Shown here one piece after another: positions 6,461 to 30,900 of a DNA stretch of 64,000 nt (the first letter of the stretch is position 1; each line of letters opens with the position of its first letter). The notes under the pieces are model-generated. The model had not been told where the DNA came from and did no database searches. It saw only the letters and a program-made list of their open reading frames with translations. A program made the translations under genes and the position numbers. The stretch comes from a virus. Its lineage: Duplodnaviria; Caudoviricetes. Where the stretch lies: the IMG/VR virus record IMGVR_UViG_2863389319_000001; one strand, 5' to 3'.

Positions 6461-6571
6461 CAACTCACCGCCACTGGTGGCATGTCAGGGATGTCGGGGT
6501 ACACGTCGGCTCCAGCTGGACGCAGGGGTGGTGTGTGCGGGCCACCCGCGTGATGCGGGTGGCCGGGGGCC

Positions 6572-11496: not shown

Positions 11497-11643
11497 ATGG
11501 TCCTCGAACCCCTCGGCATGGCCGGCGGTGACGGGAACGGCGGGAATGGCGACATGCTTCCCGGCCAGCCGTGGCCCGTACCAGCCCCGGAACCCCAGCC
11601 CGACGGCGGGCCGCCGCCTGGTGACGGGGGCCACCGTAAGTGA
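11497..11643 (+). CDS. putative RiPP precursor peptide (imiditide/pamtide-like)
   Basis: 48 aa MVLEPLGMAGGDGNGGNGDMLPGQPWPVPAPEPQPDGGPPPGDGGHRK; AAGGGAG RBS; GTGA overlap with the methyltransferase. Confidence 0.7.
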   Translation: MVLEPLGMAGGDGNGGNGDMLPGQPWPVPAPEPQPDGGPPPGDGGHRK

Positions 11644-12776
11644 CCGCCACCAATCAGGACCGTCCCGCTGCGCCGGGGCGGTCCTTCCCTGTCTCCGACC
11701 CCTGGGTCGCGGCGTTCGAGGCCGTCCCTCGCGCCCAGTTCCTGCCCGACCTGATGTGGGCACACGACATGGCCCGAGGCGCCAGCGTCCCTGTCGACCG
11801 CACGGCGGACCCGGGCGCCTGGAACGCTGCCGCGCAGGCCGACATCCCGATCGTCACCCAGTGGGACGACGGGCGGCACCGTGGCAGCCCGCCAGGCACA
11901 GTGCCGACCAGCTCGGCGAGCATGCCATCCGTCGTCGCGGCCATGCTGGACGACCTCGACGTGAGCCCAGGTATGCGCGTTCTGGAGATCGGCGCCGGTA
12001 CCGGCTGGAACGCCGGGCTGCTCACGCACCGGCTCGGCGGCTCACAGGTCGTCAGCATGGAGGTGGATCCCGCCGTTGCCGAGACCGCCCGCCAGAACCT
12101 GGCTGCCAGCGGCCTCCATCCGACTGTGATCACTGGCGATGGCTATGCAGGCCACCCAGCCGGGGCCCCCTACGACCGGATCATCGCCACATGCGGCATG
12201 CGGCAGATTCCGCAGGCCTGGGTCGAGCAGCTCCGCCCCGGCGGCATCATCGTGGCCCCCTGGGGGACCCACTTCGAGAATGGCGACGCGCTCGTCCGAC
12301 TGGCCATCTCCCAGGACGGCATCGCGGCTGGCCCTTTTCTGCGGCCGGTGGAGTTCATGAAGCTGCGCGCACAGCGTCTCCGCCCACCCCAGCATCCGGC
12401 CGAGTTCCCCGGCGACGCCGACACCAGCACCACGACCCTGCGGCTGCCGTTCGGCCCGTGGGAGGCGTTCCCGTTCGCCGCCGGCCTGCGCCTGGATGGC
12501 GTGACCCACGTTGCTGGTCGCCGTGGCGACGAGCAGGCGGTGTGGCTGTACGGGCTCGCCGACCAGTCTTGGGCGGCCACGGTCTTCCGGGATGGTGTCG
12601 ACCACGCCACGGTGTGGCAGTCGGGGCCTCGACGGCTCTGGGATGAGATCGAGGCCGCGTATCAGTGGTGGACGGCCGTGGGCCAGCCGGGCTTTGAGCG
12701 GTTCGGACTGACCGTCGATCAGGATGGCGAGCGGGCATGGCTCGACCATCCCGCCAACCTCGTAAGGGCAAGGTGA
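11640..12776 (+). CDS. protein-L-isoaspartate O-methyltransferase homologue (RiPP-type, with C-terminal extension)
   Basis: VPRAQFLP, PTSSASMP, VLEIGAGTGWNA, GDGYAG..APYDRIIAT; C-terminal QSGPRRLWD...FGLTV. Confidence 0.9.
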   Translation: MTATNQDRPAAPGRSFPVSDPWVAAFEAVPRAQFLPDLMWAHDMARGASVPVDRTADPGAWNAAAQADIPIVTQWDDGRHRGSPPGTVPTSSASMPSVVAAMLDDLDVSPGMRVLEIGAGTGWNAGLLTHRLGGSQVVSMEVDPAVAETARQNLAASGLHPTVITGDGYAGHPAGAPYDRIIATCGMRQIPQAWVEQLRPGGIIVAPWGTHFENGDALVRLAISQDGIAAGPFLRPVEFMKLRAQRLRPPQHPAEFPGDADTSTTTLRLPFGPWEAFPFAAGLRLDGVTHVAGRRGDEQAVWLYGLADQSWAATVFRDGVDHATVWQSGPRRLWDEIEAAYQWWTAVGQPGFERFGLTVDQDGERAWLDHPANLVRAR

Positions 12777-13014: not shown

Positions 13015-13794
13015 TCAGCCGGTGCGCGGCCAAGCGGCGGAAGAGTCGCGCTGAACCTGGTACGCCAGCGCGAATCGCTCGCCTGACATGCGGGTTTCGT
13101 TCACCTCAATGGCGATGGTCTCGTCACCGCGCCGGATATGACTGGTACGGGTAACGACGAGGACCGGGATCGCCTTCGAGATCTTCAGGGCCGCCTGCTC
13201 CTCCTCCGTGGGCGAGCGAGTCCAAGCCGCTTCGTCCCAGCTGATCGGCGCCTTGAAGTATTCTTCGGCCCGGTCATAGATCCCGCCCGGGCCGGGCTTC
13301 TCGGCCCCCAGCGCGGGGATCTCTCCGACCAGGGCCACCGGGATGTAGCTGCTAGCGAGTTGGAGGACCTGCTTCGGCGTGGGCGGCCCCATCCGGCGAT
13401 CTCGGACGAGGACGTCCTGTCCGCGCGGCACGCCGAGGATGTCGGCGACGTGGTCGGGCGGGACAGCAAGTCCGCGGGTCGGCGCCTCGATGGCCACCCA
13501 GTCTTTTGCGTTCTGATCGAAGAAGTAGCCGATCTCGTCGCGGTAGACCGTGCGGTCCCGGACGACGATGCGGCTACGCGGACGCTCGCGCACGTAGGCC
13601 CCCTGTCGGCCACGGATCTCCACGTAGCCGTCAGCCGCCAGCGCGCGGACGGACTTCATGGCAGTACCCCTGTGGACACCGTACCGTTCGGCGATCTCCT
13701 CCCCTGAGGGCAACTTAGAGCCGGGGCCAAACTCGCCGGCCTCGATCGCCGCCCGCAATTCATCTGCGACACGGCGGGTCTGATCCCCGGTCAT
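13015..13794 (-). CDS. GntR/UTRA family transfer repressor (KorSA/TraR-like)
   Basis: GntR winged helix (GSKLPS..IAERYGV.R.T) plus UTRA domain; divergent from the transfer operon. Confidence 0.88.
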   Translation of the reverse strand: MTGDQTRRVADELRAAIEAGEFGPGSKLPSGEEIAERYGVHRGTAMKSVRALAADGYVEIRGRQGAYVRERPRSRIVVRDRTVYRDEIGYFFDQNAKDWVAIEAPTRGLAVPPDHVADILGVPRGQDVLVRDRRMGPPTPKQVLQLASSYIPVALVGEIPALGAEKPGPGGIYDRAEEYFKAPISWDEAAWTRSPTEEEQAALKISKAIPVLVVTRTSHIRRGDETIAIEVNETRMSGERFALAYQVQRDSSAAWPRTG

Positions 13795-13962
13795 CCGTCC
13801 TCCTCGCGGTTAGTCATGGCGCGTTTCTTTCTCTTAGGCTATCCCAGAGCACGTGGTGCATGCTACGGTCTAGCTGTACCAACCAGAACGGCCCCGACAG
13901 GTGATAGCGCACCGGTCGGGGCCCAGATCAGCCCACCCTGCGTCAACAGGAAGGCCGGTCCA

Positions 13963-14202
13963 ATGACCGATCGTAGTGCCGCTACAAGCCGTAGCACATC
14001 CCAGGGGGCCCTTGAAGACCCCAGCTTCACCCCTCCGGTCCCGTCGCCCGCCGATGCGCTTGACGCGGCCCAGGCCGAACTGAACGCCCTCGCCGCCGGC
14101 ATCAACGACCGCAGCCTCGACGGAGACCAGCGGTACGACCTCCTGCAGGACATCCAGTCGGCCGCAGGCCGTCTCGACGAGCTGAAGCGGGGCCCCCAGT
14201 GA
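13963..14202 (+). CDS. hypothetical protein, first gene of the transfer operon
   Basis: MTDRSAAT start after AGGAAGG. Confidence 0.6.
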   Translation: MTDRSAATSRSTSQGALEDPSFTPPVPSPADALDAAQAELNALAAGINDRSLDGDQRYDLLQDIQSAAGRLDELKRGPQ

Positions 14203-14466
14203 TGCTCGCCGCGCTCCTCATCCTGATCATCATCAGCACCGGCGCCATGTGGCTCTACCACTGCCACGGCCGCACCTTCGAGCGCAACCCGAAGGACTCG
14301 CAGTGAGCGTCGACACCGGCCACACGATGGGCCTGACCCGCGCCGAGATCGCTGCGGCCCTGCGCGGCACCCCCGCCGACGAACCCGCACCGACCACCAG
14401 CTGGTCGTGGGACAAGCCCGACACCCGCCCCGCAGCGTGGGCCGCTTCCGGAGAGGACAAGTAGCC

Positions 14467-14775
14467 GTGCCCATCACTTTCCACGAACTCATCGCCGCCC
14501 ACAGCGAGATGCTCGCCCGCATCGCCTGCGGATCGATCGCCACCGAACCCGTCGCGTTCGTTTGCCAGCTCGGTGAGCTTGTCGACGACTCCGACCTCCG
14601 CGACAACCCGAGTTTCGAGGGCACCGCCGAGAGTCTCCGGGCTGCCGTCACGCTCCTCGCTGAGGCCCTCGACCGGCCCGCCAGCAGCCAGGCGCAGATC
14701 GATTTCCTGCAGGCCGCGGACAAGCACCTGCACGACCTCGCCGCCGACGCGATCGCCCGAAGGAGCAGCAAGTGA
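14467..14775 (+). CDS. hypothetical helical protein (paralogue of 15548-15835)
   Basis: ELIAAHSEMLA...QL...LAEAL...ADKHL. Confidence 0.65.
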   Translation: MPITFHELIAAHSEMLARIACGSIATEPVAFVCQLGELVDDSDLRDNPSFEGTAESLRAAVTLLAEALDRPASSQAQIDFLQAADKHLHDLAADAIARRSSK

Positions 14776-15008
14776 CCACCGAGACCTGGCCCGAGGGCGT
14801 GATCGCCCGCTACATGACCATGGTGGGCCTCGCCCTCGCCGACCCCAACATCACCGTTGACCTCATCAACGACGGCGGCGAAGCCATCTGCCGCGGCTGC
14901 GGCAAGGACTGGCCCAATCCCAACTACCCGTTCACCGTGCGGCAGTGGGCCGAGTCCCACGCCGAGACCTGCCGAGCCCTGCCCGATCCGAACGGGGCCC
15001 AGCGGTGA
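14772..15008 (+). CDS. small Zn-binding protein (CxxC...HxxxC)
   Basis: CRGCG...WAESHAETCRALP. Confidence 0.7.
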   Translation: MTTETWPEGVIARYMTMVGLALADPNITVDLINDGGEAICRGCGKDWPNPNYPFTVRQWAESHAETCRALPDPNGAQR

Positions 15009-15129
15009 GCGACCACATCAACGGTGGCTACGGGCAGCCGCTTCAAGCCCCGGCTGGCGGCAACCCACCCCAGTGCCAGACCAGTCAGCCCACCCCGCCC
15101 CCGCAGATCGAGGCCCCGAAGGAGCAGAA

Positions 15130-15399
15130 GTGACCACCTACGAGTACGCGATCACGATCGACATCCCCGGCCCGCACAAGCCCAACCCGCGCATCCCCGA
15201 GCAGACCCAGAACCTGAACGCCACCCGAACCCAGTACGCGTCCGGCGAGGTTGACCTCGCCGACAGCTTCGACCCGGCTTCCAGCGCGGACGTGGCCGTT
15301 GTCGCCAAGGGCCTCGTCAGCGACGTCTCCGGCCCGAAGTACGCCGGCAAGACCGTCACGGTCCGCGAGCTCACGCTCACCCCGAAGGAACGGCAGTGA
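15130..15399 (+). CDS. hypothetical protein
   Basis: GTG start VTTYEYAITI after AAGGAG. Confidence 0.6.
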   Translation: MTTYEYAITIDIPGPHKPNPRIPEQTQNLNATRTQYASGEVDLADSFDPASSADVAVVAKGLVSDVSGPKYAGKTVTVRELTLTPKERQ

Positions 15400-15547
15400 A
15401 CGTCAACGTCACCTGGCACCCGGCCGACGATCCGGGCGGCCGCCCCGCCACTGAGCAGGAGATCACCGATTTCCTCGCCAGCATGACCGCTCTCGACGGC
15501 ACCAACTACGTCGACATCTACCAGCAGACCATCGAGGAGGGCTGGGA

Positions 15548-15835
15548 ATGACCGCGAAGATCACCACGACGGCGGAGCTGATCGCCAATCACGCCGACAT
15601 GCTCGCCGACCTCTTCGGGGAACCGGCCAGCGCCAATCCCACCGAGCTCATCAGCCAGCTCGAAACGGTCGCCTCCGTGTACGAGGCGACCTCGATGACC
15701 ACCGACGCGGCCGACGCCCTCAGCAAGGCCGCCAACTACCTGGCGGAAGCCCTTGAAGACCCCCGCCGTGAGGCGCAGTTGATTCGCCGAGCCGACAAGC
15801 AGCTGTGCGTCATCGACGCGATGGCGCTGGCCTGA
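15548..15835 (+). CDS. hypothetical helical protein (paralogue of 14467-14775)
   Basis: ELIANHADMLA...QL...LAEAL...ADKQL. Confidence 0.7.
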   Translation: MTAKITTTAELIANHADMLADLFGEPASANPTELISQLETVASVYEATSMTTDAADALSKAANYLAEALEDPRREAQLIRRADKQLCVIDAMALA

Positions 15836-15847
15836 AAGGAAACCCTG

Positions 15848-15997
15848 ATGCGCGAGCACGTCACCCTCGACGACGACACGCCGTTCACCGAGACCGATTT
15901 CGAGCAGGTTCGGGAGCTCAGCGTCGCTGTGCACCACGCCGACCAGGACATCCCGAGGCTGGCCGACGAGGCCATCTACCGGCTTACCGGCCTGTAG
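15848..15997 (+). CDS. small acidic hypothetical protein
   Basis: MREHVTLDDD..., AAAGGA RBS. Confidence 0.5.
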   Translation: MREHVTLDDDTPFTETDFEQVRELSVAVHHADQDIPRLADEAIYRLTGL

Positions 15998-16159
15998 GTG
16001 AGTGCCTGCCACGAGCATGCCGAGGACGACCGCTCAGTCGCCACCGCCCTCGGCAGGCCCGCGCCTGCACACCACGACGACCCGCAAGTCCTGACCAACG
16101 CGACCGACTTGATCCGAATCCTCGGCTACCAGCCCGAAGCCGCTTGAAAGGCCACCACC

Positions 16160-16339
16160 ATGACCGCCGAGCACATCACCCCTGTCACCTACGAGATCAC
16201 CACCCCCGGCCGCACGATCACCGGCAACGCCACCGTCTTCGGCTCGATCGAGCACCGCGAGACCGTCGCCGCCCTCACCCAGCACCACCACCTCGACCTC
16301 GCCGAGATCACCGTCCAGCTCAGCACCATCGCGGCGTGA
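16160..16339 (+). CDS. small hypothetical protein
   Basis: MTAEHITPVTYEIT..., GAAAGG RBS. Confidence 0.55.
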   Translation: MTAEHITPVTYEITTPGRTITGNATVFGSIEHRETVAALTQHHHLDLAEITVQLSTIAA

Positions 16340-16513
16340 CGGTCGCCCCCGACGGCGCCGGCTACCACAACCTCGCCGGCGCCCCCGTCACCACTCAGCT
16401 CTACCTCGTCGGCCAGTACACCTGCGGCGGCTGCGGCCTCACCGAGACAGTTACCACTGAGCAACTGGGCGGCGCTCAACCACGCCAAGACCTGCGAAGG
16501 GGAACCCCAATGA
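16336..16513 (+). pseudogene. frameshifted CxxC...HxxxC Zn-binding gene
   Basis: CGGCG in one frame and NHAKTCEGEPQ* in the +1 frame, whose stop overlaps the next ATG. Confidence 0.5.
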
Positions 16514-16704
16514 TCAACCGTGAGAAGTACCCGCTGCTGGGCGCCGCGGCCGATGCCCTGGACGCCGGCGACTCCAAGCGTGCTGACGCCCTGGTCCGTG
16601 CCGCCGAGATCGCGGGCACCCCCGCTGAGAAGGCTGCACTGGCGACCACCGACAGGCTCATCGCAGCCGCTGACCAGCTCATCGCGGGCACGGCCGACCA
16701 GTAA
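16510..16704 (+). CDS. hypothetical Ala-rich protein
   Basis: MINREKYP... Confidence 0.55.
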   Translation: MINREKYPLLGAAADALDAGDSKRADALVRAAEIAGTPAEKAALATTDRLIAAADQLIAGTADQ

Positions 16705-16733
16705 TCACCATCATCAGAAACCAAGGAGCCGAA

Positions 16734-17153
16734 ATGACCGAGGCCTTCGAAACCGTCCGCCGCACAGCAGACGCAGTGGTCGTCACAGCCGATGGCCGCA
16801 ATCTGCTGCTGATCGAGCGCGACTGGCCGCCCTTCGAGGGGGCCTGGGCCCTCCCCGGCGGCCACGTAGACAGGGGGGAAACGAGCCGCGCCGCAGCCGC
16901 CCGCGAGCTGCTCGAGGAAACCGGAATCCTCCTGGCCACCAACGAGCTGGCCCAGATCGGCGTCTGGGACCAGCCTGGCCGGGACCCGCGCGGCAGGTAC
17001 GTCACCGTCGCCTACCTCGCCGTCGTCCCGGCTGGCACCCCGATCATCGCCGGGGACGACGCCCGCGCCGCCCGCTGGTGGCCGATCAACTCCCTGCCGC
17101 CGCTCGCATTCGACCACGCGGACATCATCGCCGCCGCCCTCACCCGCCGCTAA
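16734..17153 (+). CDS. Nudix hydrolase (pSAM2 Pif/MutT-like context)
   Basis: WALPGGHVDRGETSRAAAARELLEETG, RDPR, LAFDH. Confidence 0.92.
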   Translation: MTEAFETVRRTADAVVVTADGRNLLLIERDWPPFEGAWALPGGHVDRGETSRAAAARELLEETGILLATNELAQIGVWDQPGRDPRGRYVTVAYLAVVPAGTPIIAGDDARAARWWPINSLPPLAFDHADIIAAALTRR

Positions 17154-17198
17154 CCAGCCAACCGCTCCACTAGGGGCCCCGATCGCCACGAGGACACC

Positions 17199-18188
17199 GT
17201 GAAGTACCGCGCCGAAGATCGAACCCGCCTGATCCCGCACACCATCGACGGCATCACCGAGATGGTCCCGGAGGACTACACCGTCCACGTGCCCGTCCCA
17301 CCCCATGACTGGGACCGCATCATCCTCACCGCCGCCACTGCGGCCACCGCGGCCATCCTCACGGCGTCCGTCGTCTGGTCCACCAGTAGCGTCGGCGCGC
17401 TTCTCGGCCGGTCTGTCGAATCCGCCATCGCCTACGGCGCGGCTAGCGTCTTCGACCTCGTCTGGATCGTCTGTATGGCCGTCGAATGGCTGAACCGCTA
17501 TAACCCCCGCGGCGCCGTCCTCCCCCGCCGCGCCGGCCACATTGCACTCGTGATCGCTATGGCCGCGGTGTGCACCAACGGCTGGCTCACTGGGGGCGTC
17601 GCCCCCGGCATCATCGGCGCGGCCGTCTCCGCCCTCGCTAAGGGCACCTGGACCATCGTCATGAAGCACACCGCCAAGCCGCTGGACCCGCTCACACAGG
17701 GCTGGGTGGACCGGCAGATGTCCGAAGCAGGCGGCCGCCTCGCCCTCGGCTCCGTCCGCCGCCAGGTCGCGCGGGCCGACGGACAGTACGCCGCCCAGAT
17801 CGCCGCCCTCACCCCGGACGGGCCGGACACGGACAACGGACAGCCGGACACCGTGTCCGGGACAGTCCGGGCAGCTGTCCGCGCCGCCCTCACCACCATG
17901 CCCGGCGCCGCCCCCGACGAGATCGTCCGACAGCTGGCCCACGCCGGGATCCACACCGATGAGGACACCGTCCGACGCCTGTCCGGACAGCAGGACAGCA
18001 CGTCAGGGAAGGTGCTGCGTCTCACCGCCACCGCCGGGCCGAGCATCGCGGACACCATCCGGACACAGGTATCCGCAGGCGTGTCCGACCCGGTCGCTGT
18101 CCTCGCCCAAGTCCGGACTGTCCACGGATCCGATGTCCGCGCGGACACCGTCCTGCGGACACTGCGCCGGATCTCCCGCACCGCCTGA
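17199..18188 (+). CDS. SpdB-like multi-pass membrane plasmid-spread protein
   Basis: About four TM segments (FDLVWIVCMAVEWL) then a soluble C-terminal tail; in the transfer operon. Confidence 0.75.
   Translation: MKYRAEDRTRLIPHTIDGITEMVPEDYTVHVPVPPHDWDRIILTAATAATAAILTASVVWSTSSVGALLGRSVESAIAYGAASVFDLVWIVCMAVEWLNRYNPRGAVLPRRAGHIALVIAMAAVCTNGWLTGGVAPGIIGAAVSALAKGTWTIVMKHTAKPLDPLTQGWVDRQMSEAGGRLALGSVRRQVARADGQYAAQIAALTPDGPDTDNGQPDTVSGTVRAAVRAALTTMPGAAPDEIVRQLAHAGIHTDEDTVRRLSGQQDSTSGKVLRLTATAGPSIADTIRTQVSAGVSDPVAVLAQVRTVHGSDVRADTVLRTLRRISRTA
17781..18162. repeat. dense GGACA/TGTCC repeat field inside the spdB-like 3' end
   Basis: About 20 copies in about 380 bp on both strands, often paired as palindromes. 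Confidence 0.75.
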
Positions 18189-18225
18189 ACGACCCGAACC
18201 GCCACACGCTGACGAAGGAAAGATC

Positions 18226-18795
18226 ATGACCGGCAACGACTCGATCTACAATGACGCGGCGTTCGATATCACGAGCGTCCCGTCATGGAAGTCCCCGCCA
18301 CTGCACGGCGCCTATGCCCCGAACGCGAAGCTCTCCTCGCGGGCGAAGGCCGGGATCGCCGCAGGCGGGGTCATCCTCGCCGCCACCGGCATGATCGCCT
18401 ACTCGGACTACGCGTCGTCCCAAGCTGACGCCCATGTGAAGGCCGCTCAGATCGCCCTGCAGCAGTCCCAGCTGGACCTGCAGCGCCAGCAGCAGGAGGC
18501 CGCGCAGGCCGCTACCGCCGGCCAGGAGACCCAGGCCGAGCAGGCCCGGCGTCAGGCCGTCCAGGACTGCGTTGCGAAGGCCTCCGGGGACAGCATGAAC
18601 GCGGTCTCCCAGTGCTCCGCCGCCTTCCCGGCGATCACCTCGCCCGGCATGTCGACGGCCTCCGACACGGTCGCCAGCAGTAAGTCCTCGGCGGCCGGAT
18701 CCGACGTCGGGCTCGTCGTTCTCGGCTCCGTCGGGGCGGTCATGGCGGTGGGCTGGGCGAAGAAGCGGTTCGGCCACCGGGCTCCTTCTCTGTAA
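18226..18795 (+). CDS. membrane protein with coiled coil (Spd-like)
   Basis: N- and C-terminal TM segments around a Gln-rich coil. Confidence 0.7.
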   Translation: MTGNDSIYNDAAFDITSVPSWKSPPLHGAYAPNAKLSSRAKAGIAAGGVILAATGMIAYSDYASSQADAHVKAAQIALQQSQLDLQRQQQEAAQAATAGQETQAEQARRQAVQDCVAKASGDSMNAVSQCSAAFPAITSPGMSTASDTVASSKSSAAGSDVGLVVLGSVGAVMAVGWAKKRFGHRAPSL

Positions 18796-18936
18796 CACGA
18801 TGTGACCTCCCCCCACCCGCCTCCCGCTCGCAAATGAGCCCCCAATGCCACCCCTTGGCTGTTCAAATGCCGTCTCGGGGGATTCTCCGGCCGGGTGGGG
18901 GGTGGGTGGGTGACTACCAGCAGTGAGGTATTCGAG

Positions 18937-21000
18937 ATGACTACGACCATCGAACCACCCCCGCAAACCGACTCCGGAGGCGACCGCAGGCCCGCCGAGC
19001 CGAGCAGCCCGGAGGCCCGAACGGGCACCCTCGCGGGCATTCTCACCCCCGTCCAGCCGGCGCGACCGACCGCCCACCTGGGCACCACCGCCGCCCTCGC
19101 GCAGGACTTACCTGCCGCCGAAGCGGCGACCCCGGGCGGGGTCGCCGGCCGCGGGAAGACCGGCTCGGGCGATCGGCGGGACGGCCCGATCGGCGCCCTC
19201 GTACGGGCCTTGGCCGGCCGCCTGGGCCGCACCGGCACCGCCACCTCGGTCAAGCAGAGTCACGACATCAAAGAGACTCGGCTCTCCGGGAACTCGACCT
19301 CCGCCACCCACGCGAACAAGTCCGACCGCACCGCCAAGCATGAGAGTGGCTCGCAGCACCGGTCCAACCGTGACGCCAAGATCGCCGACCTCAACAACAA
19401 GGTCCACCAGCACCACAACAGGAACCAGCAGGACCACAAGCGGGCCAGCACATCTGACGCCAAGACCTCCCATGCGAGGCAGGCCAAGGACGACAACTCG
19501 TCCAGGCACAACCGGGACAGCAAGGACAACCGGGACGCCAAAGCGTCCGACGCGAAGAGCTCCAAGAACGACAACGCGTCGAAATCCGCGCAGGACGACA
19601 AGAACCACCGCGACGCCCGCACCGACGGGAAGACAGCAAAGACCAACAGCACCGACACCAAGTCCTCGGACACGAAGACCACGAGCGCGAAGAAAGACGA
19701 CGCGGCAAGGAACGACAACTCCCAGCGCAGCAACCAGGACGACCGGAAGACCGGCAGCACGGACACGAAGAACACCCGAACCGACGTACCGGCGTACAGC
19801 GCCCGGGACGCCGGCCCGTTCGACTCCGCCCCCACCAAGCGACCCAAGGGCGGCGGACCGGACGAACGCGGCTCAGCCAAAAATCCAGCCCGCAAGATCG
19901 ACCTGGGCAAGACCAGTGACGCCCCGTCCGACCCAGCGAAGGAAGCCGGTCCGGACCGACCGGCGAAGAAGGACACCGAACCGGCCGACCGCGACAAGCA
20001 GGACCAGGCGTCACAGGGCCCGCGCCCCCGCACCCAAACCTCCCGAGAGGTCGGCTACCGCGACGGAACACGGGCCGCCGCAGCCGTCGGGCACGTCCGG
20101 GCGTGGCGGGACGGCACCCGCGACGGCTGGGACGACCGCACCACCGCCGATCTGGCCGAGAGGAAGAAGATGGACGCCACCAAGACCCGCAACGAGGACC
20201 GCCGCCTGCTGAAGCCCGACAAGGCCCCCATCGCGCCGAAGACGGCCCCAGCCGCCGGATCAACCGCCGACATGACGAAGACGACCGAGCCCCCGAAGCA
20301 GCCCACGCTCACCATCCCACCGAAGCCGACGACCCCGCCCAGGCCAACGGTCCCGCCGAAGCCAACCGTCCCGCCCACCATTCCGGCCGGGACAGGCGCA
20401 CAGAAGAAGACCGCCCCGGCACCCGGGGCAGTAACGACGAAGACCACAGCAGCAACACCCCATTCAGGACAGACCACCGGGCCGACGCCGCCCGGCCCCA
20501 AGTCGCCCACAGCACCCGAGCCGACAGCAGTGACAGCAGTGAAAGTCGGCCCCGATGCCGTGGAGTTCACCGCACCGGACCGGCACGGCGTCGCGGCGCA
20601 GCACACCCTCAGCCGTGGCGAGGTCCGCAGCCTCAGGCAATTCGAACAACGCCTGGAACAGAAGGGGCAGACGCTGGCGAAAATCGGCGAGGACAACAAA
20701 ACCGCCCAGCAGCACGCGCTCGCCCACGCGATGCGCGCCCAGCAACTGGCCGAAGCAGCCAAGGAGATGCAGGGCGGGATGGCGCTGGTCGGCGTGCTAC
20801 TCCGGCTGGCCGAGTGGGCCACCGCGCTGCGCTATAAGACCGATGAGGTCGCCAAGCGCACCACGCGCAGCGCCGAGGCCGTACGCGTGGTTGCCGCCAA
20901 CGCCCAGACCCGACACGGGGTCATCTACAAGGCCGTCGCCGACTCCCCACTCACCACCCCAGCCGAGCGGGCCTTCTACCAGGACAAGCAGGGCAGCTGA
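18937..21000 (+). CDS. large low-complexity transfer-associated protein with helical C-terminal domain
   Basis: D/K/S/T/N-rich and Pro-rich tracts; C-terminus resembles the next ORF. Confidence 0.75.
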   Translation: MTTTIEPPPQTDSGGDRRPAEPSSPEARTGTLAGILTPVQPARPTAHLGTTAALAQDLPAAEAATPGGVAGRGKTGSGDRRDGPIGALVRALAGRLGRTGTATSVKQSHDIKETRLSGNSTSATHANKSDRTAKHESGSQHRSNRDAKIADLNNKVHQHHNRNQQDHKRASTSDAKTSHARQAKDDNSSRHNRDSKDNRDAKASDAKSSKNDNASKSAQDDKNHRDARTDGKTAKTNSTDTKSSDTKTTSAKKDDAARNDNSQRSNQDDRKTGSTDTKNTRTDVPAYSARDAGPFDSAPTKRPKGGGPDERGSAKNPARKIDLGKTSDAPSDPAKEAGPDRPAKKDTEPADRDKQDQASQGPRPRTQTSREVGYRDGTRAAAAVGHVRAWRDGTRDGWDDRTTADLAERKKMDATKTRNEDRRLLKPDKAPIAPKTAPAAGSTADMTKTTEPPKQPTLTIPPKPTTPPRPTVPPKPTVPPTIPAGTGAQKKTAPAPGAVTTKTTAATPHSGQTTGPTPPGPKSPTAPEPTAVTAVKVGPDAVEFTAPDRHGVAAQHTLSRGEVRSLRQFEQRLEQKGQTLAKIGEDNKTAQQHALAHAMRAQQLAEAAKEMQGGMALVGVLLRLAEWATALRYKTDEVAKRTTRSAEAVRVVAANAQTRHGVIYKAVADSPLTTPAERAFYQDKQGS

Positions 21001-21001
21001 C

Positions 21002-21376
21002 ATGGCAAATGGACTGACATACCGCGACCTGGTGCGCCAGGTGAAGCAGCTGTCGAAGGAGATCGCCCGGGACACCTCCGCACACCGGGCACTGGCCGAA
21101 CTGCTCAAACAGGAGGCTCAGGACACCCTGCGGGTCGCCGAACAGATCTCCACACTCAAGGTCGACTCCGCGACTGTTGCCGAGACCTCCGAGGTGGCGC
21201 GGCTCATGAACGGCCTCTCAGAGGCGGCCGTCTCCTACGCCACAACGGCCGAGGAAGCTGGCCGACAGGCCCAGGCCGCGGGCGAGCAGGCCCGCACCGA
21301 CCACAACGGCATCCAGGAGGCCAACGACCGCTCCCCGGTCGAAATGGCCGACCGCACTTGGTACACCCAGGAGTAG
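21002..21376 (+). CDS. TraA-like small helical transfer protein
   Basis: 124 aa directly before traB; ends HNGIQEANDRSP...WYTQE. Confidence 0.65.
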   Translation: MANGLTYRDLVRQVKQLSKEIARDTSAHRALAELLKQEAQDTLRVAEQISTLKVDSATVAETSEVARLMNGLSEAAVSYATTAEEAGRQAQAAGEQARTDHNGIQEANDRSPVEMADRTWYTQE

Positions 21377-21380
21377 AACC

Positions 21381-23642
21381 ATGACCACCAACACCACCCC
21401 CACCGCCGAAGCAGTGCGCAGCCCGACCGTCGAGAAGCGACTCGCGATCGCCGAGATCGCCGCCCCACTCCTGTGCGCAGGCATCATGCCCCTTCTCGAC
21501 CCCCAGGCCGCGACCACCATGTCGACGTTCCTCGCCGCGCCAGCCCTCATCGCCAGCGCCAACGCCAGCGGACTGCTGAACGACCGACTACTGGACGACA
21601 TCCCCGGCGGCGACCTCCTGCGCGCCCACCGCCGCCCCATGTTCATCTCCGCCATCGCCACCGCGACCGCCGCCGCCACCGCCACCCTCGACGGCCAGGC
21701 CGGCATCGACCAACTCGTCGCCGGCTGGATGACCATGCCCTCCCTCCCAGGGCTCGTGTCCGTCGCCTGGCTCGGCGCCGTCGGGTTCGTCGGCTTCTCC
21801 CTGCGACGCGTCATCGCCGGCCACCGCCGCCCCCATAAGGCCGCCCCCAGCGCGGCCCCTGCTGCCAACCCGGTTGACGCTGCCGTGCGCGACATCCTGC
21901 ACGGCTGGGACGCCCACATCTCCGGGGAGAACGGCGCCCATCCCGGCCAGCACCTGACCCTCACCGCCCACGGACCCGAGATGTGGGAGGGCGTCATCGA
22001 AGCCGCCCCCGGCAGGCCGGTCACCGTCACCGGCGAGACCGTCTCCGGCGTTTACCGGCTCCCCGTCGACTGGATCTCGATCACCGAGGGGCCGCACACC
22101 AGCTCCCGCAACATCCGGGTCCGCACCGTCGCCCCGACCATCGAAGAGGCGCAGTACAGCACCCTGGAAGCGCGCTGGCTGCGTCGCGTCGCCCACAAGG
22201 CCGGCTGCATGCCCGGCACTCACCTCGAAGGCGCCGTCCCCGACCCGGCGACTGGCGGTGTCGCCGCTTGGATCGTCGCTGACGACGACACCGACGCGAT
22301 CACGGTCCCCGACCAGTACCGGCTCGCCGGGGCCCTGCACACCACCACCCTGCTCGTCGCGGTGGAACCCACGAGCAACCCGCGCAAGGCCAAGTTCCGC
22401 CTGATGGAGCGCTCTCCACTGCAGGACGGACGGCCGCTGCCCGGCCCCGGGGCCCTCCTCGCCAACAAGAACGGGTTCATCCAACTCGGTGGCGGCATCT
22501 CCGGGCGCCCCGCCCGCCTGCAGATTTTCGACCCCACCGTCGGTGCCCAGCACATCCTGGTCGCCGGCGTCACCGGCTCCGGCAAGGGCGGCGTCCTCCA
22601 GCTGATCTGCCTGGCCTACCACGTCAACAAGGTCGCGATCCTTTACGCCGACCCCAAGGGCTCTTCCAACCCGGCAGTGGCCCGGATGGCCGCCTACGCC
22701 GGCTGCGGCAAGGACGGAGCGATGGGCACGCTGCGCCTTGCGTACGCGATCCTCCTGCACCGCATCGCCGAGTCCGCCGCCACCGATGCCAAGAACTTCG
22801 TGGCCAGCGCCGAACGACCGTACGTCGCTGTCCCGCTGGATGAGTTCGCGCAGGTCCTCGGCGAGAAGTCCGAGCACATGAAGGAGGCGTCGTTCATCGT
22901 CGCTGCCATCGCCGAGCAGGGCCGGTCGCTGGGCATGGCCATGGTGCTGTGCGGCCAGATCATGAACCTCGACAAGATGGGCTCCGACACCAGTATCCGC
23001 GACAACATCTTCTACGGCGGGGCCCTGGTCCTCCTCCGCTCTGACAGCGCGCAGAAGCAGCGTGTTGACCTGCCCGACGCGTTCGCCGGCATCGACCCGT
23101 CCAAGATCCCCGCCTTCTGGAAGAGCGACGCAGAGGAAAGCCTGATCTACGACCCGACCGTCCCCGAAGACGACCCCAGTCGCACCTTTGGCGTCGGCTA
23201 CACGGTCGGCCCCGATGAGCAGGCCGAGATGATGCGCGTCTGGATCCAGGAGACCGCTGACGGTCTGTTCGACCCGGCCGACATTGTCTACCCCGCCGAC
23301 TTCCCCGATTGGGGCGACCGAGAGGCGATCGCCGCCACCCCCGTCGGCCCGGCGGCTGTCGACTACGACGAGGATGGCGACGACTCAATGTGGGCGCCCA
23401 GCGCCCCTGTTCAGTTCACGAAGGAGCCAACCGCCCAGGAGAAGATCCTCACTGTGCTGGAGGACCGTCGGGACCCGATCGGCGTTGAGATCGGCTATCT
23501 GCACCTCGACCAGATCACCCAGATGACCGGCGTCGCCCGCAAAACCGTCGAGAACACCCTCAGCCGCCTCGCCAAGGACGGCACTGTTGTCCGCAACGCG
23601 GAGGCGGCCGGCGAGTACGGCCTGCCACTCCCTCCTGACTGA
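21381..23642 (+). CDS. traB: TraB-type FtsK/SpoIIIE conjugative DNA translocase
   Basis: N-terminal TM segments, Walker A AGVTGSGKG, YADPKG, Walker B VPLDEF, C-terminal winged helix. Confidence 0.85.
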   Translation: MTTNTTPTAEAVRSPTVEKRLAIAEIAAPLLCAGIMPLLDPQAATTMSTFLAAPALIASANASGLLNDRLLDDIPGGDLLRAHRRPMFISAIATATAAATATLDGQAGIDQLVAGWMTMPSLPGLVSVAWLGAVGFVGFSLRRVIAGHRRPHKAAPSAAPAANPVDAAVRDILHGWDAHISGENGAHPGQHLTLTAHGPEMWEGVIEAAPGRPVTVTGETVSGVYRLPVDWISITEGPHTSSRNIRVRTVAPTIEEAQYSTLEARWLRRVAHKAGCMPGTHLEGAVPDPATGGVAAWIVADDDTDAITVPDQYRLAGALHTTTLLVAVEPTSNPRKAKFRLMERSPLQDGRPLPGPGALLANKNGFIQLGGGISGRPARLQIFDPTVGAQHILVAGVTGSGKGGVLQLICLAYHVNKVAILYADPKGSSNPAVARMAAYAGCGKDGAMGTLRLAYAILLHRIAESAATDAKNFVASAERPYVAVPLDEFAQVLGEKSEHMKEASFIVAAIAEQGRSLGMAMVLCGQIMNLDKMGSDTSIRDNIFYGGALVLLRSDSAQKQRVDLPDAFAGIDPSKIPAFWKSDAEESLIYDPTVPEDDPSRTFGVGYTVGPDEQAEMMRVWIQETADGLFDPADIVYPADFPDWGDREAIAATPVGPAAVDYDEDGDDSMWAPSAPVQFTKEPTAQEKILTVLEDRRDPIGVEIGYLHLDQITQMTGVARKTVENTLSRLAKDGTVVRNAEAAGEYGLPLPPD

Positions 23643-23744
23643 ACTACCGCCAGGCCCCGGCGCGGTGCACCAGAATGGATCCCTGACCCGAGGGGGACCA
23701 TCCGTGACACCGCGCCATCCAGAAAGCCCGCTCCCACCGGAGGC

Positions 23745-24185
23745 ATGATGGATCAGAACCTCGACCAGGCGCTCGCCGATCTGGCGGCGGACATCGCCCG
23801 CACCGACGGCAAATCCTCGCTCTACCTAGCAGTCGACGGCGTCACCGTTGCCGGTCTCGCGGCGCTCGCCTCCGCCAACGTCCCCGTCGCAGGCCTGGTG
23901 CTCGCCGGCACATCCGGCGCCGCCACCGTCGCCGCAGCCACACTCGGGATCCGCGCCGCCCGGCCAAACCTCGGCGGCGACGATGCAGAGGGCTGGCCGC
24001 GCTGGGCGAAGGCCGAGCCCGAGGAGATCCTGGCCGACCTTGCCGAGGACCGGCGCCTGGCCAAGATCCGGAAACTGTCCCAGATCTGCAAGCGCAAGAT
24101 GAGGCACCTGCAATGGTGTGCTGACTGCACGCTGGCTGGGCTCATCGCCCTCGCGCTCGCCGCCGTCGTTACCATCGCCAGCTGA
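23745..24185 (+). CDS. Pycsar-effector-like (DUF5706) membrane protein
   Basis: IARTDGKSSL, two TM segments, RPNL, LSQICKRK, final TM. Confidence 0.7.
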   Translation: MMDQNLDQALADLAADIARTDGKSSLYLAVDGVTVAGLAALASANVPVAGLVLAGTSGAATVAAATLGIRAARPNLGGDDAEGWPRWAKAEPEEILADLAEDRRLAKIRKLSQICKRKMRHLQWCADCTLAGLIALALAAVVTIAS

Positions 24186-24197
24186 TGGGAGTGACCC

Positions 24198-24824
24198 GTG
24201 TTACCGCGCCATCCCGCACGACGCCGTACTACCCGCCGGAACCGCCGTCGGCCCGGCCTCACCTCACCGCCCGTCATCCTGACCGCCGGGGTGCTCGTCG
24301 CGATCGGCTCGCCCCTGGTCGGGATCCCCATCCTGCTCCTGGCCGTCGCAGGTTTGTGGCTCATGAGGCCCGGCCGTACCCGGTACAGGATCCGCGCACC
24401 GCGCAGGCCAGCACGCATCTCTCGGCCCCGCACCGCCAGCATCAGCGGCTACCAGGCCATGACCCCCGGCCAGTTCGAACACGCGCTCGCGGATCTCTGC
24501 CGACGCGACGGCTGCACCCAGGTGCGCGTCGTCGGCGGAGCCGGGGACCTGGCCGCAGACGTACTCGCCACCACCCCCGATGGTCGCAAACTCCTCATCC
24601 AGGCCAAGCGATTCGGACCCAACACCACCGTCGGCTCCGGCGATGTCCAAAAGGTCAACGGCACCTACCGCGACATCCACCACGCCCAGCTCGCCGCGAT
24701 CGTCACCACCAACCGATTCACCAAAGACGCCGAAGCCCTCGCCCGCCGCGTCGGGATCCGCGCCTACGACCAGCACAGGCTCGCAAGTTGGGCGAGCCGC
24801 ACCGGGCCCGCGCCCTGGCAGTGA
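24198..24824 (+). CDS. membrane-anchored Mrr-family restriction endonuclease
   Basis: MTPGQFEH, GAGDLAADV, LIQAKRF, VTTNRFT..A. Confidence 0.88.
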   Translation: MLPRHPARRRTTRRNRRRPGLTSPPVILTAGVLVAIGSPLVGIPILLLAVAGLWLMRPGRTRYRIRAPRRPARISRPRTASISGYQAMTPGQFEHALADLCRRDGCTQVRVVGGAGDLAADVLATTPDGRKLLIQAKRFGPNTTVGSGDVQKVNGTYRDIHHAQLAAIVTTNRFTKDAEALARRVGIRAYDQHRLASWASRTGPAPWQ

Positions 24825-24977
24825 CAAGCTGGTCTGCATGAACGACTGCACCGCCACCGGCACCATCCGCCTCGGCGACGGGGACATCGCCGTCATCTGC
24901 AACCTCGCCCCGCATCAAGGCGACCAACGCCACGACCTCGTCCACGGCGACTGGACCAGCACACCCGAGGAGTAGAC

Positions 24978-25421
24978 GTGACCGACGACCTGGTGGCGTT
25001 CCTGCGCGAGCGCCTGGACGAGGCTGAAGCCGTGGCCAAAAAGGACATTTGGGCGGCCGACAACGCAACCACCGGCAACTGGCGCGCCCACTACGGCGAG
25101 AACCTGCCCTACTCGCTGATCAAAGCGGGCGACTCCGTCCTCATGCGCGTCGAGTCCGAGCAACACCAGGCCGACGTGCTGCTCGCCGCCCGCTTCAAGC
25201 CGGACACGGTGCGCGCGCGGGCCTGCCTCGTACTGGCCGAGGTCGAGGCGAAGCGGAGCCTCATCGACCGGTACGAGAACCACCGAGTCGCCCATGACCA
25301 CCACGTCGGCGGCATCCTGACGAAATACCTCGTCGCCGAACTACGCACTGCGCTCCGAGCACTCGCCCTCCCATACCGCGAGCACCCGAACTACCGCAGC
25401 GAATGGGCACCCGACGCCTGA
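24978..25421 (+). CDS. DUF6221-like protein
   Basis: DLVAFLRERLDE...VLAEVEAKR...LALPYREHPNYRSEW. Confidence 0.8.
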   Translation: MTDDLVAFLRERLDEAEAVAKKDIWAADNATTGNWRAHYGENLPYSLIKAGDSVLMRVESEQHQADVLLAARFKPDTVRARACLVLAEVEAKRSLIDRYENHRVAHDHHVGGILTKYLVAELRTALRALALPYREHPNYRSEWAPDA

Positions 25422-27570: not shown

Positions 27571-27939
27571 ATGGCGCTCCGCAACGTCGCCAACTGGGAA
27601 CTCGCGGTCGGCTCCCAGTCCTCCCTGCAGTTCGTGTTCACCCAGCCGAGCGGCGCCCTCTACAACATCACCGGGCTGAGTTGGGAGTTCAGGGTCCGCA
27701 CCGACCCCACCGACACGTCCACCGCGCCCCTGATCGAGATCACCCAGACTGGGAACGCCCAGGGCCTGATCACCGCCAATACCTCGGCCTCCACCGTGCT
27801 CCTCACGCTCAACCCGGCCGCCACGCAGACCATGGCGGCCGCCACCTACGCGTGGGCCCTCTGGTCGAACCCCGGCACCACGACCGCCACCCAGTGGGTC
27901 GGCGGCAGCTTCCGCCTGGACCCGGTCGTCCAACCCTGA
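27571..27939 (+). CDS. beta-sandwich virion adaptor (fibre-attachment-like)
   Basis: All-beta pattern; precedes the fibre gene. Confidence 0.55.
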   Translation: MALRNVANWELAVGSQSSLQFVFTQPSGALYNITGLSWEFRVRTDPTDTSTAPLIEITQTGNAQGLITANTSASTVLLTLNPAATQTMAAATYAWALWSNPGTTTATQWVGGSFRLDPVVQP

Positions 27940-27953
27940 CCAGGGGGTGCACC

Positions 27954-30900
27954 GTGACCACCGTTCCCCCAGTCGTCACGGTCACCGAGTCCGGCCCGGC
28001 CGTCACCGTCACACAGACCGGGCCGACGGTGACCGTCGTCACGCAGACGCCAACCGTCACGGTCTCCTCTGCAGGCGCCCAGTCCGTCGTGCAGGCGTTG
28101 CCTCCCGCGACGTACAACCCGGCGACGCAGACCATCGGCGTGACCGTCGGGACCACCGCGGGCACGGTCGCAGCAGGCAATGACAGCCGGATCGTTGGCG
28201 CCATCCAAGGCGGCGCGAGCGCTGGCGGAGACCTATCCGGCACGCTTCCGAGCCCGACAGTTACATCCACCCACCTGACCGCCGCGCTACCCATCGCACA
28301 GGGTGGCACGGGGCAGGCGTCGGCGACCGCGGCGTACAACGCGCTCGGCTCGGAGACCCTCGTCATGACGACGGGCATCCCGGCGGTCGACGCGGGACTC
28401 ATCAACTCGGCGATCTCGGCTGCGTCGGCGGCCGGCGGCGGCCGGGTGCGGCTCGGGAACGGCTCGTGGGTGCTGTCGTCCAGCATCACTCCGCAGTCGA
28501 ACGTGACCCTGTGCGGGCAGCCGGGAACTACCGTGTCGATCAACTTTGTTGGCGACATCGTCTTCGGGAAGACCACCGCCTTCACCAACTTCACCATCGA
28601 GGACCTGACGTTCCTCGGCCCCGTCAACAGCTTCCCGACCGTACCGACCCGCGCCCGCACCACCTCCGGCAACGGGGCACAGACCGCCGTCTACCTGTCC
28701 GGCGACCTCGACTCCACCGGCACCGGCCAGGCGCAGCTGACGAACTTCATCTTCCGTAGGTGCACCGTCCAGAACTGTTCGGCGCTGCCGCTTCGGATCG
28801 GCGGGGTGCGCGGCGAAGTCCTCGTCTACGACTGCACGTTCATCAACAACCAGGACGTCGGGTTCATCTACAACCAGAACGTGCAGTTCGAGGGCAACTT
28901 CGTCTACCAGTCAGCCGACAACGGCGTATCCGTCTCCCGTGGCAACAACAAGTGCGTTGTAGTCGGCAACACCTTCGAGAACTGCTGCTACAACGGCATC
29001 TGGCTGTCCGGCTTCGACGACGGCAGCCACAACCTCGTCGACATCGGGCCGACGAACTTCGCATGCACCGGCAACACGGTGATCAACGTCGGGTTCAACG
29101 GCATCATGCTGGACCAGGCCCCCGCCAACGGCACGGTCACCGGCAACATGGTCACCCAGGGCTACTTCCGGGGGCCTTCGGATCAGGCATCGGACGCCAA
29201 CGGCGCCGGCGTGTACATCGGCGGCTACCCCACCAGCGCCCGCAACTCCCCGACCGCGTACGCCACGAATCTGGTCGTTGCGGGCAACACCCTGTTCCAG
29301 TGTGCCCGCGCCGGCGTGTACATCACCGGTGCCAAGGCGATCACCGTTGAGGCGAACCAAATCCTCAACTGCGGCACCCAGTACCTCGCCGACGGCGCCA
29401 CCGCGATCTCCTCCACCGACAGCACGAACAACGTCGGCATCCTGATCGACAACACCGCGACGAATACCGACATCGCGATCCGCAACAACACCGTCCTCGA
29501 CGAACGCGCAACCCCCTACGGGAACTATGCGCTCGTCCCGCAGACCGCGAACTCGTCGTACGTGTACTGGTTCAACCACATGGCCGGACTGCGGAACCCC
29601 TACAACGTGCTGGACCACGACCCCAACACCCGAGAGATCTCCTCCACGATCCGGTTCGACGCGAACACCAAGTTCGCCGGCGGCGCCACCGCCGGCACAT
29701 CCGGCGGCACCGGCACCATCTCCGGATTCGACATCAACGGCGCCGCAGGATCCGCACGCCGCCACCAGATCCTCACCGGCAGCGTCGTTCGCTGGGCATC
29801 CGGCGGATCCGGCGACGCCGAGACCGGCTCCAACATCGGCACGAACTGGGTCCTCAACGCCTACTCGGACAGCGGAGCGTTCCTGTTCACGCCGATCACC
29901 GTGAACCGGGCCACCGGCGCCGTCACCCTGTCCACCCCGCTGCCGGTCGGATCCGGCGGAACCGGCTCGGCAACGCAGAACTGGGTGTCCCTCGCCGGGG
30001 ATCTCGGGAACACGGTCGGGTCGCCTCAGGTCACGTCCACACACCTGGCCAGCCCGCTGCCCATCAGCCAGGGCGGGACCGGGTCCGCCAGCCAGTCGTT
30101 CGTGAACCTGGCCGGTGACCTCGGCAACACGGTGACGAGTCCGCAGGTCACCTCGACCCACCTGACGAGCGCCCTGCCGATCGCTCAGGGCGGGACGGGC
30201 AGCGCAACGCAGAACTGGGTCGACCTCACGACTACTCAGACGGTCGGCGGGACGAAGGCCTTCAGCAGCGCGCCCAAGCTGCCAGGCGTCCTGGACAGCA
30301 ACGGCGTCACGGTGCTCGGCATCACGGCCACGCCGTCCGCGGTCAACTTCGTCAGCGTACAGAACAACACCACCGGAAACCGGCCCGCCCTGGTCGCTGG
30401 CGGCTCTGACACCAACATCGGCCTGACGGTCAAGACCCAGGGCACGGGCGCGCTCGTCTACCACCCCGGCAGCGACAGCACCGCAGCCGTCCAGCTCAAC
30501 AACGCCGCCCAGACCAGCACCGCGCTGAGTGTCGACACCAGCAACGTGCGTGTCGGTATCGGCAAGAACAGCCCCGGCTCCACGCTCGATGTCGCCGGGA
30601 CCGTCACCGCTACGGGCGTTGCCCTCACCACGAGCCCGACCGCGGGCTACGTGGCCACGTCCGACAGCACGGGCAACGCCACCTGGCAGGCGGTCGGCGT
30701 CAACGGGATCACCCCGGTCCATGCCGGCTTCACCGCGTTCGGCACCGGCGGAATGATCAACACCCTGAACGTGTCCTCAGGGACCCCCGTCACCATGACC
30801 GCCGGCACGATCTACTGGGCTGCCGTGTTCGTACCGTTCACCGTCACGCTCACCGGCGTTATGGTCAGTGTCGGCACCACCGGCGGAACCGACCTGTGGA

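Follow-up and report, generated by a model that had tools for sequence, protein, structure and literature searches.

We analysed a 64,000-nucleotide (nt) stretch of virus DNA (IMG/VR record IMGVR_UViG_2863389319_000001), referred to below as the window, and in particular a block of genes at positions 13015-25421 that an initial annotation, made from the letters and their open reading frames (ORFs) alone, had described as a Streptomyces-type conjugation module lying inside a phage. The window corresponds to G000:C1:1470665-1534664 of a 9.57-Mb genome with 71% G+C, and its proteins have their closest matches in Kitasatospora. Because of the high G+C content, ORFs were picked by third-position GC. 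The block consists of a regulator gene and, divergent from it, an operon (the tra operon) that is co-directional with the late genes of the phage and includes a core of four genes, the last of which encodes an intact TraB-type protein.

Results

Gene content of the block

The following features were found in the block (aa, amino acids; TM, transmembrane):

13015-13794, minus strand: GntR/UTRA regulator (PF00392, 1.5e-17; PF07702, 1.5e-10; phrog_10724, 7.6e-48)
13890-13923: inverted repeat of 14 nt with a 6-nt spacer, in the intergenic region between the GntR gene and the operon; candidate operator
13960-16704, plus strand: small ORFs, e.g., 14407-14775, 14772-15008, 15396-15551, 15548-15835 and 16160-16339
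16734-17153, plus strand: Nudix hydrolase (PF00293, 4.3e-24; phrog_1198)
17199-18188, plus strand: membrane protein of 329 aa with at least two TM helices (TM prediction; phrog_35187, 4e-73)
18226-18795, plus strand: protein of ~190 aa with a single TM helix at its C-terminus; first of the four tra core genes
18895-21000, plus strand: protein of 701 aa with a Pro-rich linker; second core gene
21002-21373, plus strand: helical protein of 124 aa; third core gene
21381-23642, plus strand: TraB, 753 aa; fourth core gene (PF01580, 26.3 bits against a cut-off of 24)
23745-24185, plus strand: PycTM (former DUF5706) membrane protein of the Pycsar-effector type (PF18967, 4e-11; PADLOC PycTM)
24198-24824, plus strand: Mrr-like nuclease with one TM helix (weak matches: phrog_17577, ZorD Mrr-like, mREase_IV)
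24978-25421, plus strand: DUF6221 protein (PF19730, 1.2e-20)

Several parts of the initial annotation were recovered as described, namely the KorSA-like GntR regulator divergent from the operon, the Nudix gene, the intact TraB translocase, the DUF5706-like protein, and the lack in the block of an integrase, a Rep protein and att (attachment) sites; flanking direct repeats were absent as well. Other parts had to be narrowed. Two membrane proteins (with two and one TM helices) are indeed encoded in the operon, but their likeness to SpdB was borne out by no family model. The Mrr protein corresponds to the Mrr-like nuclease at 24198-24824, whereas the gene at 24978-25421 encodes a DUF6221 protein. 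The proposed TraA-like gene found no family model, and the sole lead is an Atlas lead (0.76) to a TraA-like domain for the 701-aa protein.

For comparison we refer to the plasmid-phages pZL12 and pSLE1, a linear plasmid of K. indigofera, a chromosomal prophage of Kitasatospora sp. NBC_01302, and two genomes that carry sister phages, G005 and G041. A GntR gene occupies the equivalent place in pZL12, pSLE1, the K. indigofera plasmid, G005 and NBC_01302, and the regulator of the block appears, from its position, to be the equivalent of TraR/KorA; the operator function of the inverted repeat is likewise putative. The small ORFs at 13960-16704 had no family matches; 14772-15008 has homologues in pSLE1, pZL12, G005 and NBC_01302. 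An ORF of 299 aa at 15805-16704 was rejected as a gene: the GC3 (third-position GC) frames and the translations indicate an Arg/Pro-rich, high-GC artefact lying over several small genes. Neither the 329-aa nor the ~190-aa membrane protein matched DUF2637, a family that is matched by the positional equivalents in G005, NBC_01302 and the K. indigofera plasmid; judged by gene order, the 329-aa protein is probably the counterpart of the DUF2637/Spd-type proteins of these related modules. The 701-aa, 124-aa and ~190-aa core proteins had no match in Pfam, NCBIfam, PHROG or PADLOC. The 124-aa gene was absent from the first ORF listing and was found by homology.

The assignment of TraB is based on motifs and on a structural model. 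The motifs Walker A (G396-K402) and Walker B (D487-E488) show no variation across 32 homologues. The protein has hydrophobic helices at residues 21-39 and 121-139, and long N-terminal helices in the model, as expected of a membrane anchor. The AlphaFold model (pLDDT 80.7) retrieved FtsK (6t8g/2ius), the TcpA coupling protein (E ~1e-10) and EccC in Foldseek. It should be noted that the fold search alone succeeded, as phmmer found no match among PDB sequences. The C-terminal residues 685-747 are modelled as three helices and a strand resembling a winged helix-turn-helix (wHTH; pLDDT ~90); weak profile matches were to HTH_Crp_2 (E 0.0099) and ORF80 (1e-4). TraB is thus predicted to be a double-stranded DNA (dsDNA) translocase of the FtsK/SpoIIIE fold. 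With the adjacent GntR regulator and the membrane proteins of the operon, the gene content of the block corresponds to the Streptomyces TraB-type layout.

The core on plasmids and in other prophages

Close homologues of TraB number ~200, and many of them are on contigs of 85-95 kb or on plasmids; against 50,697 phage records, neither tblastn of TraB at 1e-5 nor megablast of the block gave a match. The K. indigofera linear plasmid (PLSDB) carries a GntR gene, a DUF2637 gene, the core genes and TraB (72% identity), the four core proteins being 57-72% identical to those of the block; this plasmid encodes two pairs of ParAB, and none of its genes is annotated as a phage gene. The genes preceding TraB accompany it repeatedly: the ~190-aa protein is 57-92% identical to pre-TraB genes in this plasmid, in the loci L013-L015 and in NBC_01302, the 701-aa protein is found beside TraB at 41-80% identity, and TraB is immediately preceded by a homologue of the 124-aa protein in the K. 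indigofera plasmid (62%), pSLE1 (37%) and NBC_01302 (82%). A TraB homologue was present in 14 of 150 species genomes of the same genus, and in none of these 14 did the TraB contig carry the TerL of the element or a PF04860 portal. When the search for related loci was seeded with a single protein, three loci only were recovered.

The initial annotation had proposed synteny of TraB with packaging genes as a check, and such synteny recurs in plasmids and in a second prophage. In pSLE1 and four further ~90-kb Streptomyces plasmids (PLSDB), a TraB homologue (42-47% identity) is followed at a distance of 1-3 kb by a terminase gene in the same orientation, and pZL12 has the same linkage. The chromosomal prophage of NBC_01302 has a core 82-91% identical to that of the block, followed by an Mrr_cat gene (72% identical to the Mrr-like nuclease), a beta-helix protein, a different terminase of 509 aa, and a portal. 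Comparison of the four core genes with those of NBC_01302 gave dN/dS ratios of 0.13-0.38, which points to purifying selection on the core.

The carrier is an integrated prophage

In the whole-genome view, the window is part of one 96.3-kb element integrated in a Kitasatospora chromosome. A perfect direct repeat of 126 bp, present in two copies only, bounds the element (window coordinates -30715..-30590 and 65549..65674; 96,264 bp apart). A 3-hydroxyacyl-CoA dehydrogenase gene reaches with its 3' end into the left copy, and a tyrosine integrase is encoded just inside this copy, ~30 kb to the left of the window. In four genomes of the same genus, only 0.16-2.8 kb separate the dehydrogenase gene from the gene on the right flank (empty site), which identifies the 96.3 kb as an insertion. 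Thus, the absence of an integrase and att sites holds for the block, and the element as a whole has both, beyond the window. Within the element, we found no second recombinase and no ParB_N match; the element is integrated, and the ParAB type of episomal maintenance is not indicated. There was no tRNA gene in the 134 kb examined. The main features of the phage are as follows:

left arm of the element: Gp3-like protein, exonuclease, SSB and C5 methylase
4089-5543, minus strand: DnaB helicase (DnaB_C, 1.3e-92)
5486-6463, minus strand: putative initiator of 325 aa (from position and iterons; no family match)
8412-8627, minus strand, and 8819-9232, plus strand: divergent pair of helix-turn-helix (HTH) genes, Cro-like and CI-like (HTH_3, 1.7e-10, and weak HTH_3)
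11640-12776: PCMT/PIMT-type methyltransferase, just left of the GntR gene
27681-31202, plus strand: right-handed beta-helix protein of 1173 aa (PF13229), directly before terS
31216-60356, plus strand: late operon, starting with terS and including head genes, a tail tube protein, Dit and tail proteins
31216-31617, plus strand: terS-like gene
31646-33331, plus strand: TerL
33353-36496, plus strand: portal-NUDIX-MuF fusion in a single ORF of 1047 aa (portal PF04860, MuF-like domain)
46890-51266, plus strand: tape measure protein
58758-59945, plus strand: GH25 lysin

The carrier is a complete temperate phage of the siphovirus type, resident as a prophage and integrated by a tyrosine integrase. The HTH pair is probably its immunity switch, so that the block lies between immunity and late genes and runs in the direction of the latter, as initially annotated. 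Eight GGGTCACC/AGGTGACC iterons at 5956-6101, the strongest local word cluster of the window, are inside the putative initiator gene upstream of DnaB and suggest a lambda-O-like origin. Scanning 12.7-32 kb for consensus promoters and terminators gave nothing that exceeded shuffled sequences.

Several observations concern single genes of the element. A Gp3-like "recombination directionality factor" (RDF; PF18897, 4e-39) is encoded at L006:9450-10547 (window -25550..-24453). Gp3 is the RDF of serine integrases, and it is present here although the sole recombinase of the element is the tyrosine integrase (L006:4572-5798). Right of attR, at L008:1748-2451 (window 65748-66451), two small ORFs map to other contigs in relatives, and the gene after them is the conserved neighbour of the integration site; a small extra island may adjoin the prophage at this point. 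The portal-NUDIX-MuF fusion is kept at 63-68% identity in two sister phages, and the Nudix gene of the tra operon is a separate, second one. A gene for an Endonuclease VII domain protein of 235 aa (40329-41036) stands among the head genes, without a counterpart in the collinear sister phages and with a 40% homologue in pZL12; it has the appearance of an inserted mobile nuclease. The 1173-aa beta-helix protein has a 53% homologue (~390 residues) at the equivalent place in the NBC_01302 prophage, and the sister phages G005 and G041 yielded no homologue of it.

A variable slot in sister phages

Relatives of TerL were found in 34 of 400 other genomes sampled from the family. The closest is in G005 (TerL 83-85% identity), where a contig of 93,235 bp (G005:C4) is collinear with the element from the left-arm genes (-27.5 kb) to ~64 kb; the late operon is collinear with both G005:C4 and G041:C16 (57-94% identity). 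No homologue of the element's integrase was found on G005:C4. This collinearity, together with the presence of the 126-bp repeat in two copies only, ruled out tandem elements at one att site.

Some of the genes between the replication and late regions do not follow this conservation. In G005, the corresponding slot contains a different GntR gene (26% identity), a DUF2637 membrane protein, and an FtsK_SpoIIIE protein of 654 aa that has the P-loop region alone in common with TraB of the block. The slot is bounded by the PIMT-like methyltransferase (74%) and the Mrr-like nuclease (70%), and the conservation of these two genes places the left and right edges of the swapped segment at them. In G041 (TerL 78%, collinear), genes for a WXG100-REase toxin, an HTH protein and a methylase occupy the slot, and there is no FtsK-family match on the contig. 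Used as a query, the PycTM gene found no homologue in G005, G041 or NBC_01302. Since sister phages hold unrelated content in the same slot, the segment at ~13.0-24.2 kb is cargo that can be exchanged, in a variable slot with the immunity/replication region on one side and the late operon on the other, and is not a fixed part of the phage lineage. By the same comparison, the phage of G005 and the one described here carry unrelated TraB-type modules in this slot.

It should be noted that the G005 element is a separate 93-kb contig and that a part of it is also found at the very end of the chromosome contig. The G005 FtsK gene scores identically at three places (G005:C1:8478687-8515066, G005:C2 near 858958, and G005:C4). 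These copies could reflect a duplication at the chromosome end (terminal inverted repeat) or assembly redundancy.

Flanking direct repeats would have suggested that a defective AICE (actinomycete integrative and conjugative element) had inserted recently, as had been considered in the initial annotation. AICEs combine Int, Rep and Tra functions in a compact, att-flanked unit, usually in a tRNA gene. The block, in contrast, has no int, rep or flanking repeats, and its 96-kb carrier is a phage in a protein-coding gene. Around 12.7-26.5 kb, repeats were found at chance level only, and this possibility was rejected because of the lack of flanking repeats, the intact genes, the low dN/dS ratios, and the occurrence of the core on true plasmids.

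Short repeats in the membrane-protein genes

The word CGGACA(C) is clustered at 17780-18165, a candidate cis site in the gene of the 329-aa membrane protein: 8 of the 28 copies of CGGACAC in the window are found within 340 bp (17824-18162), on both strands and in two reading frames. Every tra module compared has a private 7-mer of this kind, repeated 7-12 times, in the 3' part of its membrane-protein (DUF2637-type) gene:

window, 17780-18165: CGGACAC
NBC_01302, L047:5893-6243: GCGAACC
pSLE1, L010:27488-28000: GGCTCAC
G005, L030:8639-9050: GCGCCCC

The words of the block and of NBC_01302 differ, though the C-terminal domains of the two TraB proteins are almost identical and the recognition helix is identical. 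Judged by these four modules, the private repeats seem to follow the membrane-protein gene rather than TraB.

Discussion

Comparison with known transfer systems

The biology of TraB, its cis locus clt, TraR and the Spd proteins has been reviewed, including the layout with a GntR gene beside tra in conjugative plasmids (PMC4447253). The block resembles the systems of pSVH1, pIJ101 and pSAM2 in having a GntR-type regulator beside the transfer operon, small membrane proteins in the operon, and an FtsK-like TraB that is anchored in the membrane and ends in a C-terminal domain that serves DNA recognition in those systems and is predicted here. It differs from them in that it has no Rep or Int of its own, no 8-bp clt repeats that could be linked to TraB, and a complete phage as its carrier. 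FtsK-family ATPases are also borne by actinophages (Streptomyces phage Gilgamesh; a Mycobacterium phage cluster with Ariel and Courthouse), although no GntR/Spd/TraB operon is described in the records consulted.

Plasmid-phages are known to conjugate and to form infective particles (PMC4170104). The best comparison is pZL12 (phage ZL12, GQ919031; Zhong et al. 2010, as cited in PMC4487206 and PMC3583192), the transfer of which, according to the latter source, depends on a main tra gene along with a pair of neighbours. pSLE1 of Streptomyces leeuwenhoekii is syntenic with pZL12 (PMC4487206). Like the element, pZL12 is ~90 kb in size and has a siphovirus-type late operon and an SSB. Its GntR gene (pZL12.80) is divergent from 79c-73c (small ORFs and a membrane protein), 72c (766 aa) and 71c (FtsK-like), and this operon runs into the terminase, portal, capsid and tail genes; the element has the same order, with a protein of ~700-770 aa before the translocase, followed by terS, TerL, portal and capsid. 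The transfer locus of pZL12 is reportedly named traA-traC in the pZL12 abstract, and we take these genes to be 71c-73c. Unlike the element, which is integrated, has att repeats and lacks a ParB_N match, pZL12 is an episomal circular plasmid with ParAB; its TerL is 37% identical, most other genes are unrelated, and the host genus differs. BLASTP of the tra proteins of the block against pZL12.71c-73c found no similarity, and direct homology of these genes was rejected. pSLE1 and similar plasmids of ~85-95 kb (NZ_LN831788.1, NZ_CP109340.1, NZ_CP108500.1, NZ_CP130725.1, CP109516.1) share with the element the gene order, TraB (42-47%) and the 701-aa and 124-aa core proteins (37-41%); they differ in being plasmids with ParAB (PMC4487206) and in their head and tail genes, which are unrelated except for TerL (33%).

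The element thus combines virion genes and a TraB locus, with GntR/tra followed by the terminase, as in plasmid-phages of the pZL12, pFP4 and pSLE1 type. Genome-wide kinship was not supported: similarity to pZL12 and pSLE1 is limited to SSB, TerL (33-37%), a few small ORFs and, in pSLE1, the tra core (37-42%). What links the element to pZL12 is therefore its architecture and the type of module, and not a close lineage. Since the GntR/tra-then-terminase layout is already known from pZL12 and pSLE1, the element is an integrated variant of a known hybrid. The initial annotation had called pZL12 a partial precedent; this understates it, because pZL12 has the same architecture, and the idea of dual-mode spread has already been published (PMC4170104, PMC3583192).

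A probable transfer module as cargo of a prophage

We consider it probable, with moderate confidence, that the block is an intact DNA-transfer module of the plasmid type found in Streptomycetaceae, carried as exchangeable cargo by a 96.3-kb prophage that spreads both by virions and by contact. This reading builds on what was observed here: the anatomy of the block, the boundaries of the element, the fold modelled for TraB, the homologous relation between the core and plasmid modules, the recurrent pZL12-type order, and the purifying selection. Dual-mode spread, as virions and by conjugation, is plausible by analogy. Upon excision or induction, the GntR repressor would release the tra operon, as in pSVH1 (PMC4447253). 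Hexamers of TraB in the membrane, together with the membrane and core proteins, would then drive the phage genome, as double-stranded DNA, through the walls of hyphae; it would pass into an adjacent mycelium, through the septa of a single mycelium, or both. Establishment in the recipient would rely on the element's own initiator/DnaB origin and on its integrase. Such an element would spread both as virions and by contact, like plasmid-phages, but from an integrated and not an episomal resting state.

Several observations weigh against this reading. The CGGACAC cluster was favoured at first as the clt of TraB and was then downgraded, as the word does not co-vary with the wHTH of TraB, and no enriched word common to the modules here and in NBC_01302 was found. 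The best NCBIfam match of TraB, plasmid_TraB (NF041214), reaches 38.2 bits against a cut-off of 800; TraB is a distant branch, outside this equivalog. BLASTP also found no similarity between TraB and its presumed pZL12 counterpart, pZL12.71c. The phage of G041 manages with no FtsK gene at this place, so that the module is not essential to the phage. Finally, PADLOC identifies defence-type genes, PycTM and the Mrr-like nuclease, adjoining TraB; the PycTM gene is an orphan, with no cyclase nearby.

A different role for the same machinery has to be weighed first. The module could serve the phage within one mycelium only, with TraB and the membrane proteins moving replicating phage DNA across septal cross-walls, so that many compartments are exploited and no conjugation takes place. 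Such a role is compatible with everything seen, including the co-directionality of the operon with the late genes. Isolated Streptomyces phages (SF3, TurkishDelight, Kromp) carry partial homologues of the 329-aa membrane protein, and the FtsK-like translocase of phage Gilgamesh is 34% identical to the type-B protein of the sister phage in G005. The four-gene core, however, is also present on a linear plasmid free of phage genes and on numerous contigs of plasmid size, where its role would be plasmid transfer, and we regard an exclusively intramycelial role as unlikely. The two roles are not exclusive, since in pSVH1 the same TraB machinery is responsible for both transfer and spreading (PMC4447253).

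It is very unlikely that the block is inert, a leftover of a plasmid or AICE which entered the phage by recombination and no longer moves DNA. The lack of int, rep and att genes or sites within it, the failure to identify a clt, and the position in a region of variable cargo would suit a remnant. Yet the plasmid copies of the core likewise have no int or rep beside it, and the slot of the sister phage holds a second, unrelated tra module. The intact core ORFs with conserved Walker motifs and the purifying selection seen against the second prophage copy make decay improbable.

Least probable of all is that the FtsK-like ATPase, with the genes around it, forms a moron island that works in defence or exclusion instead of DNA export: this would suit PycTM, the Mrr-like/ZorD-type nuclease matches, a weak mad8 match for TraB, the toxin in the G041 slot, and the filing of the PHROG FtsK-like family under "moron, auxiliary metabolic gene and host takeover", but on plasmids the TraB core travels without PycTM or the nuclease (both outside the conserved core), PADLOC gives TraB 25 bits only and nothing for the other core proteins, the best NCBIfam match is a plasmid TraB, and the GntR/tra layout matches conjugative plasmids (PMC4447253).

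Returning to the reading as a transfer module in a prophage, two aspects are new: that the element is integrated, and that tra modules are exchanged like cassettes. From pZL12, the element differs in chromosomal integration with an integrase and att sites, in the absence of ParB, and in the genus of the host. More tentatively, we propose that it represents an integrative conjugative temperate phage, which would persist as a prophage, exit in virions and also travel as naked dsDNA by way of TraB, and that phages of mycelial actinomycetes repeatedly capture interchangeable tra cassettes; spread by contact would then be a selected and recurrent property, and not a peculiarity of pZL12. This wider proposal is based on the two unrelated TraB modules in the same slot of sister phages, and on the joining of one cassette to different head modules.

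Phage-plasmids are usually thought to have abandoned conjugation, with the exception of the Streptomyces plasmid-phages, of which very few cases have been studied. The locus described here is a hybrid of this kind that is integrated in the chromosome and belongs to another genus, and the comparison of sister phages shows TraB modules behaving as cassettes that can be swapped, immediately ahead of the packaging genes. With two proposed routes of transfer that could be deleted one at a time, the element would make a tractable test system. If transfer does occur, prophages of mycelial bacteria would own a means of spread that is independent of virions and escapes the receptor-based limits of host range; chromosomal DNA would be mobilised as well, which would bear on gene flow among antibiotic producers.

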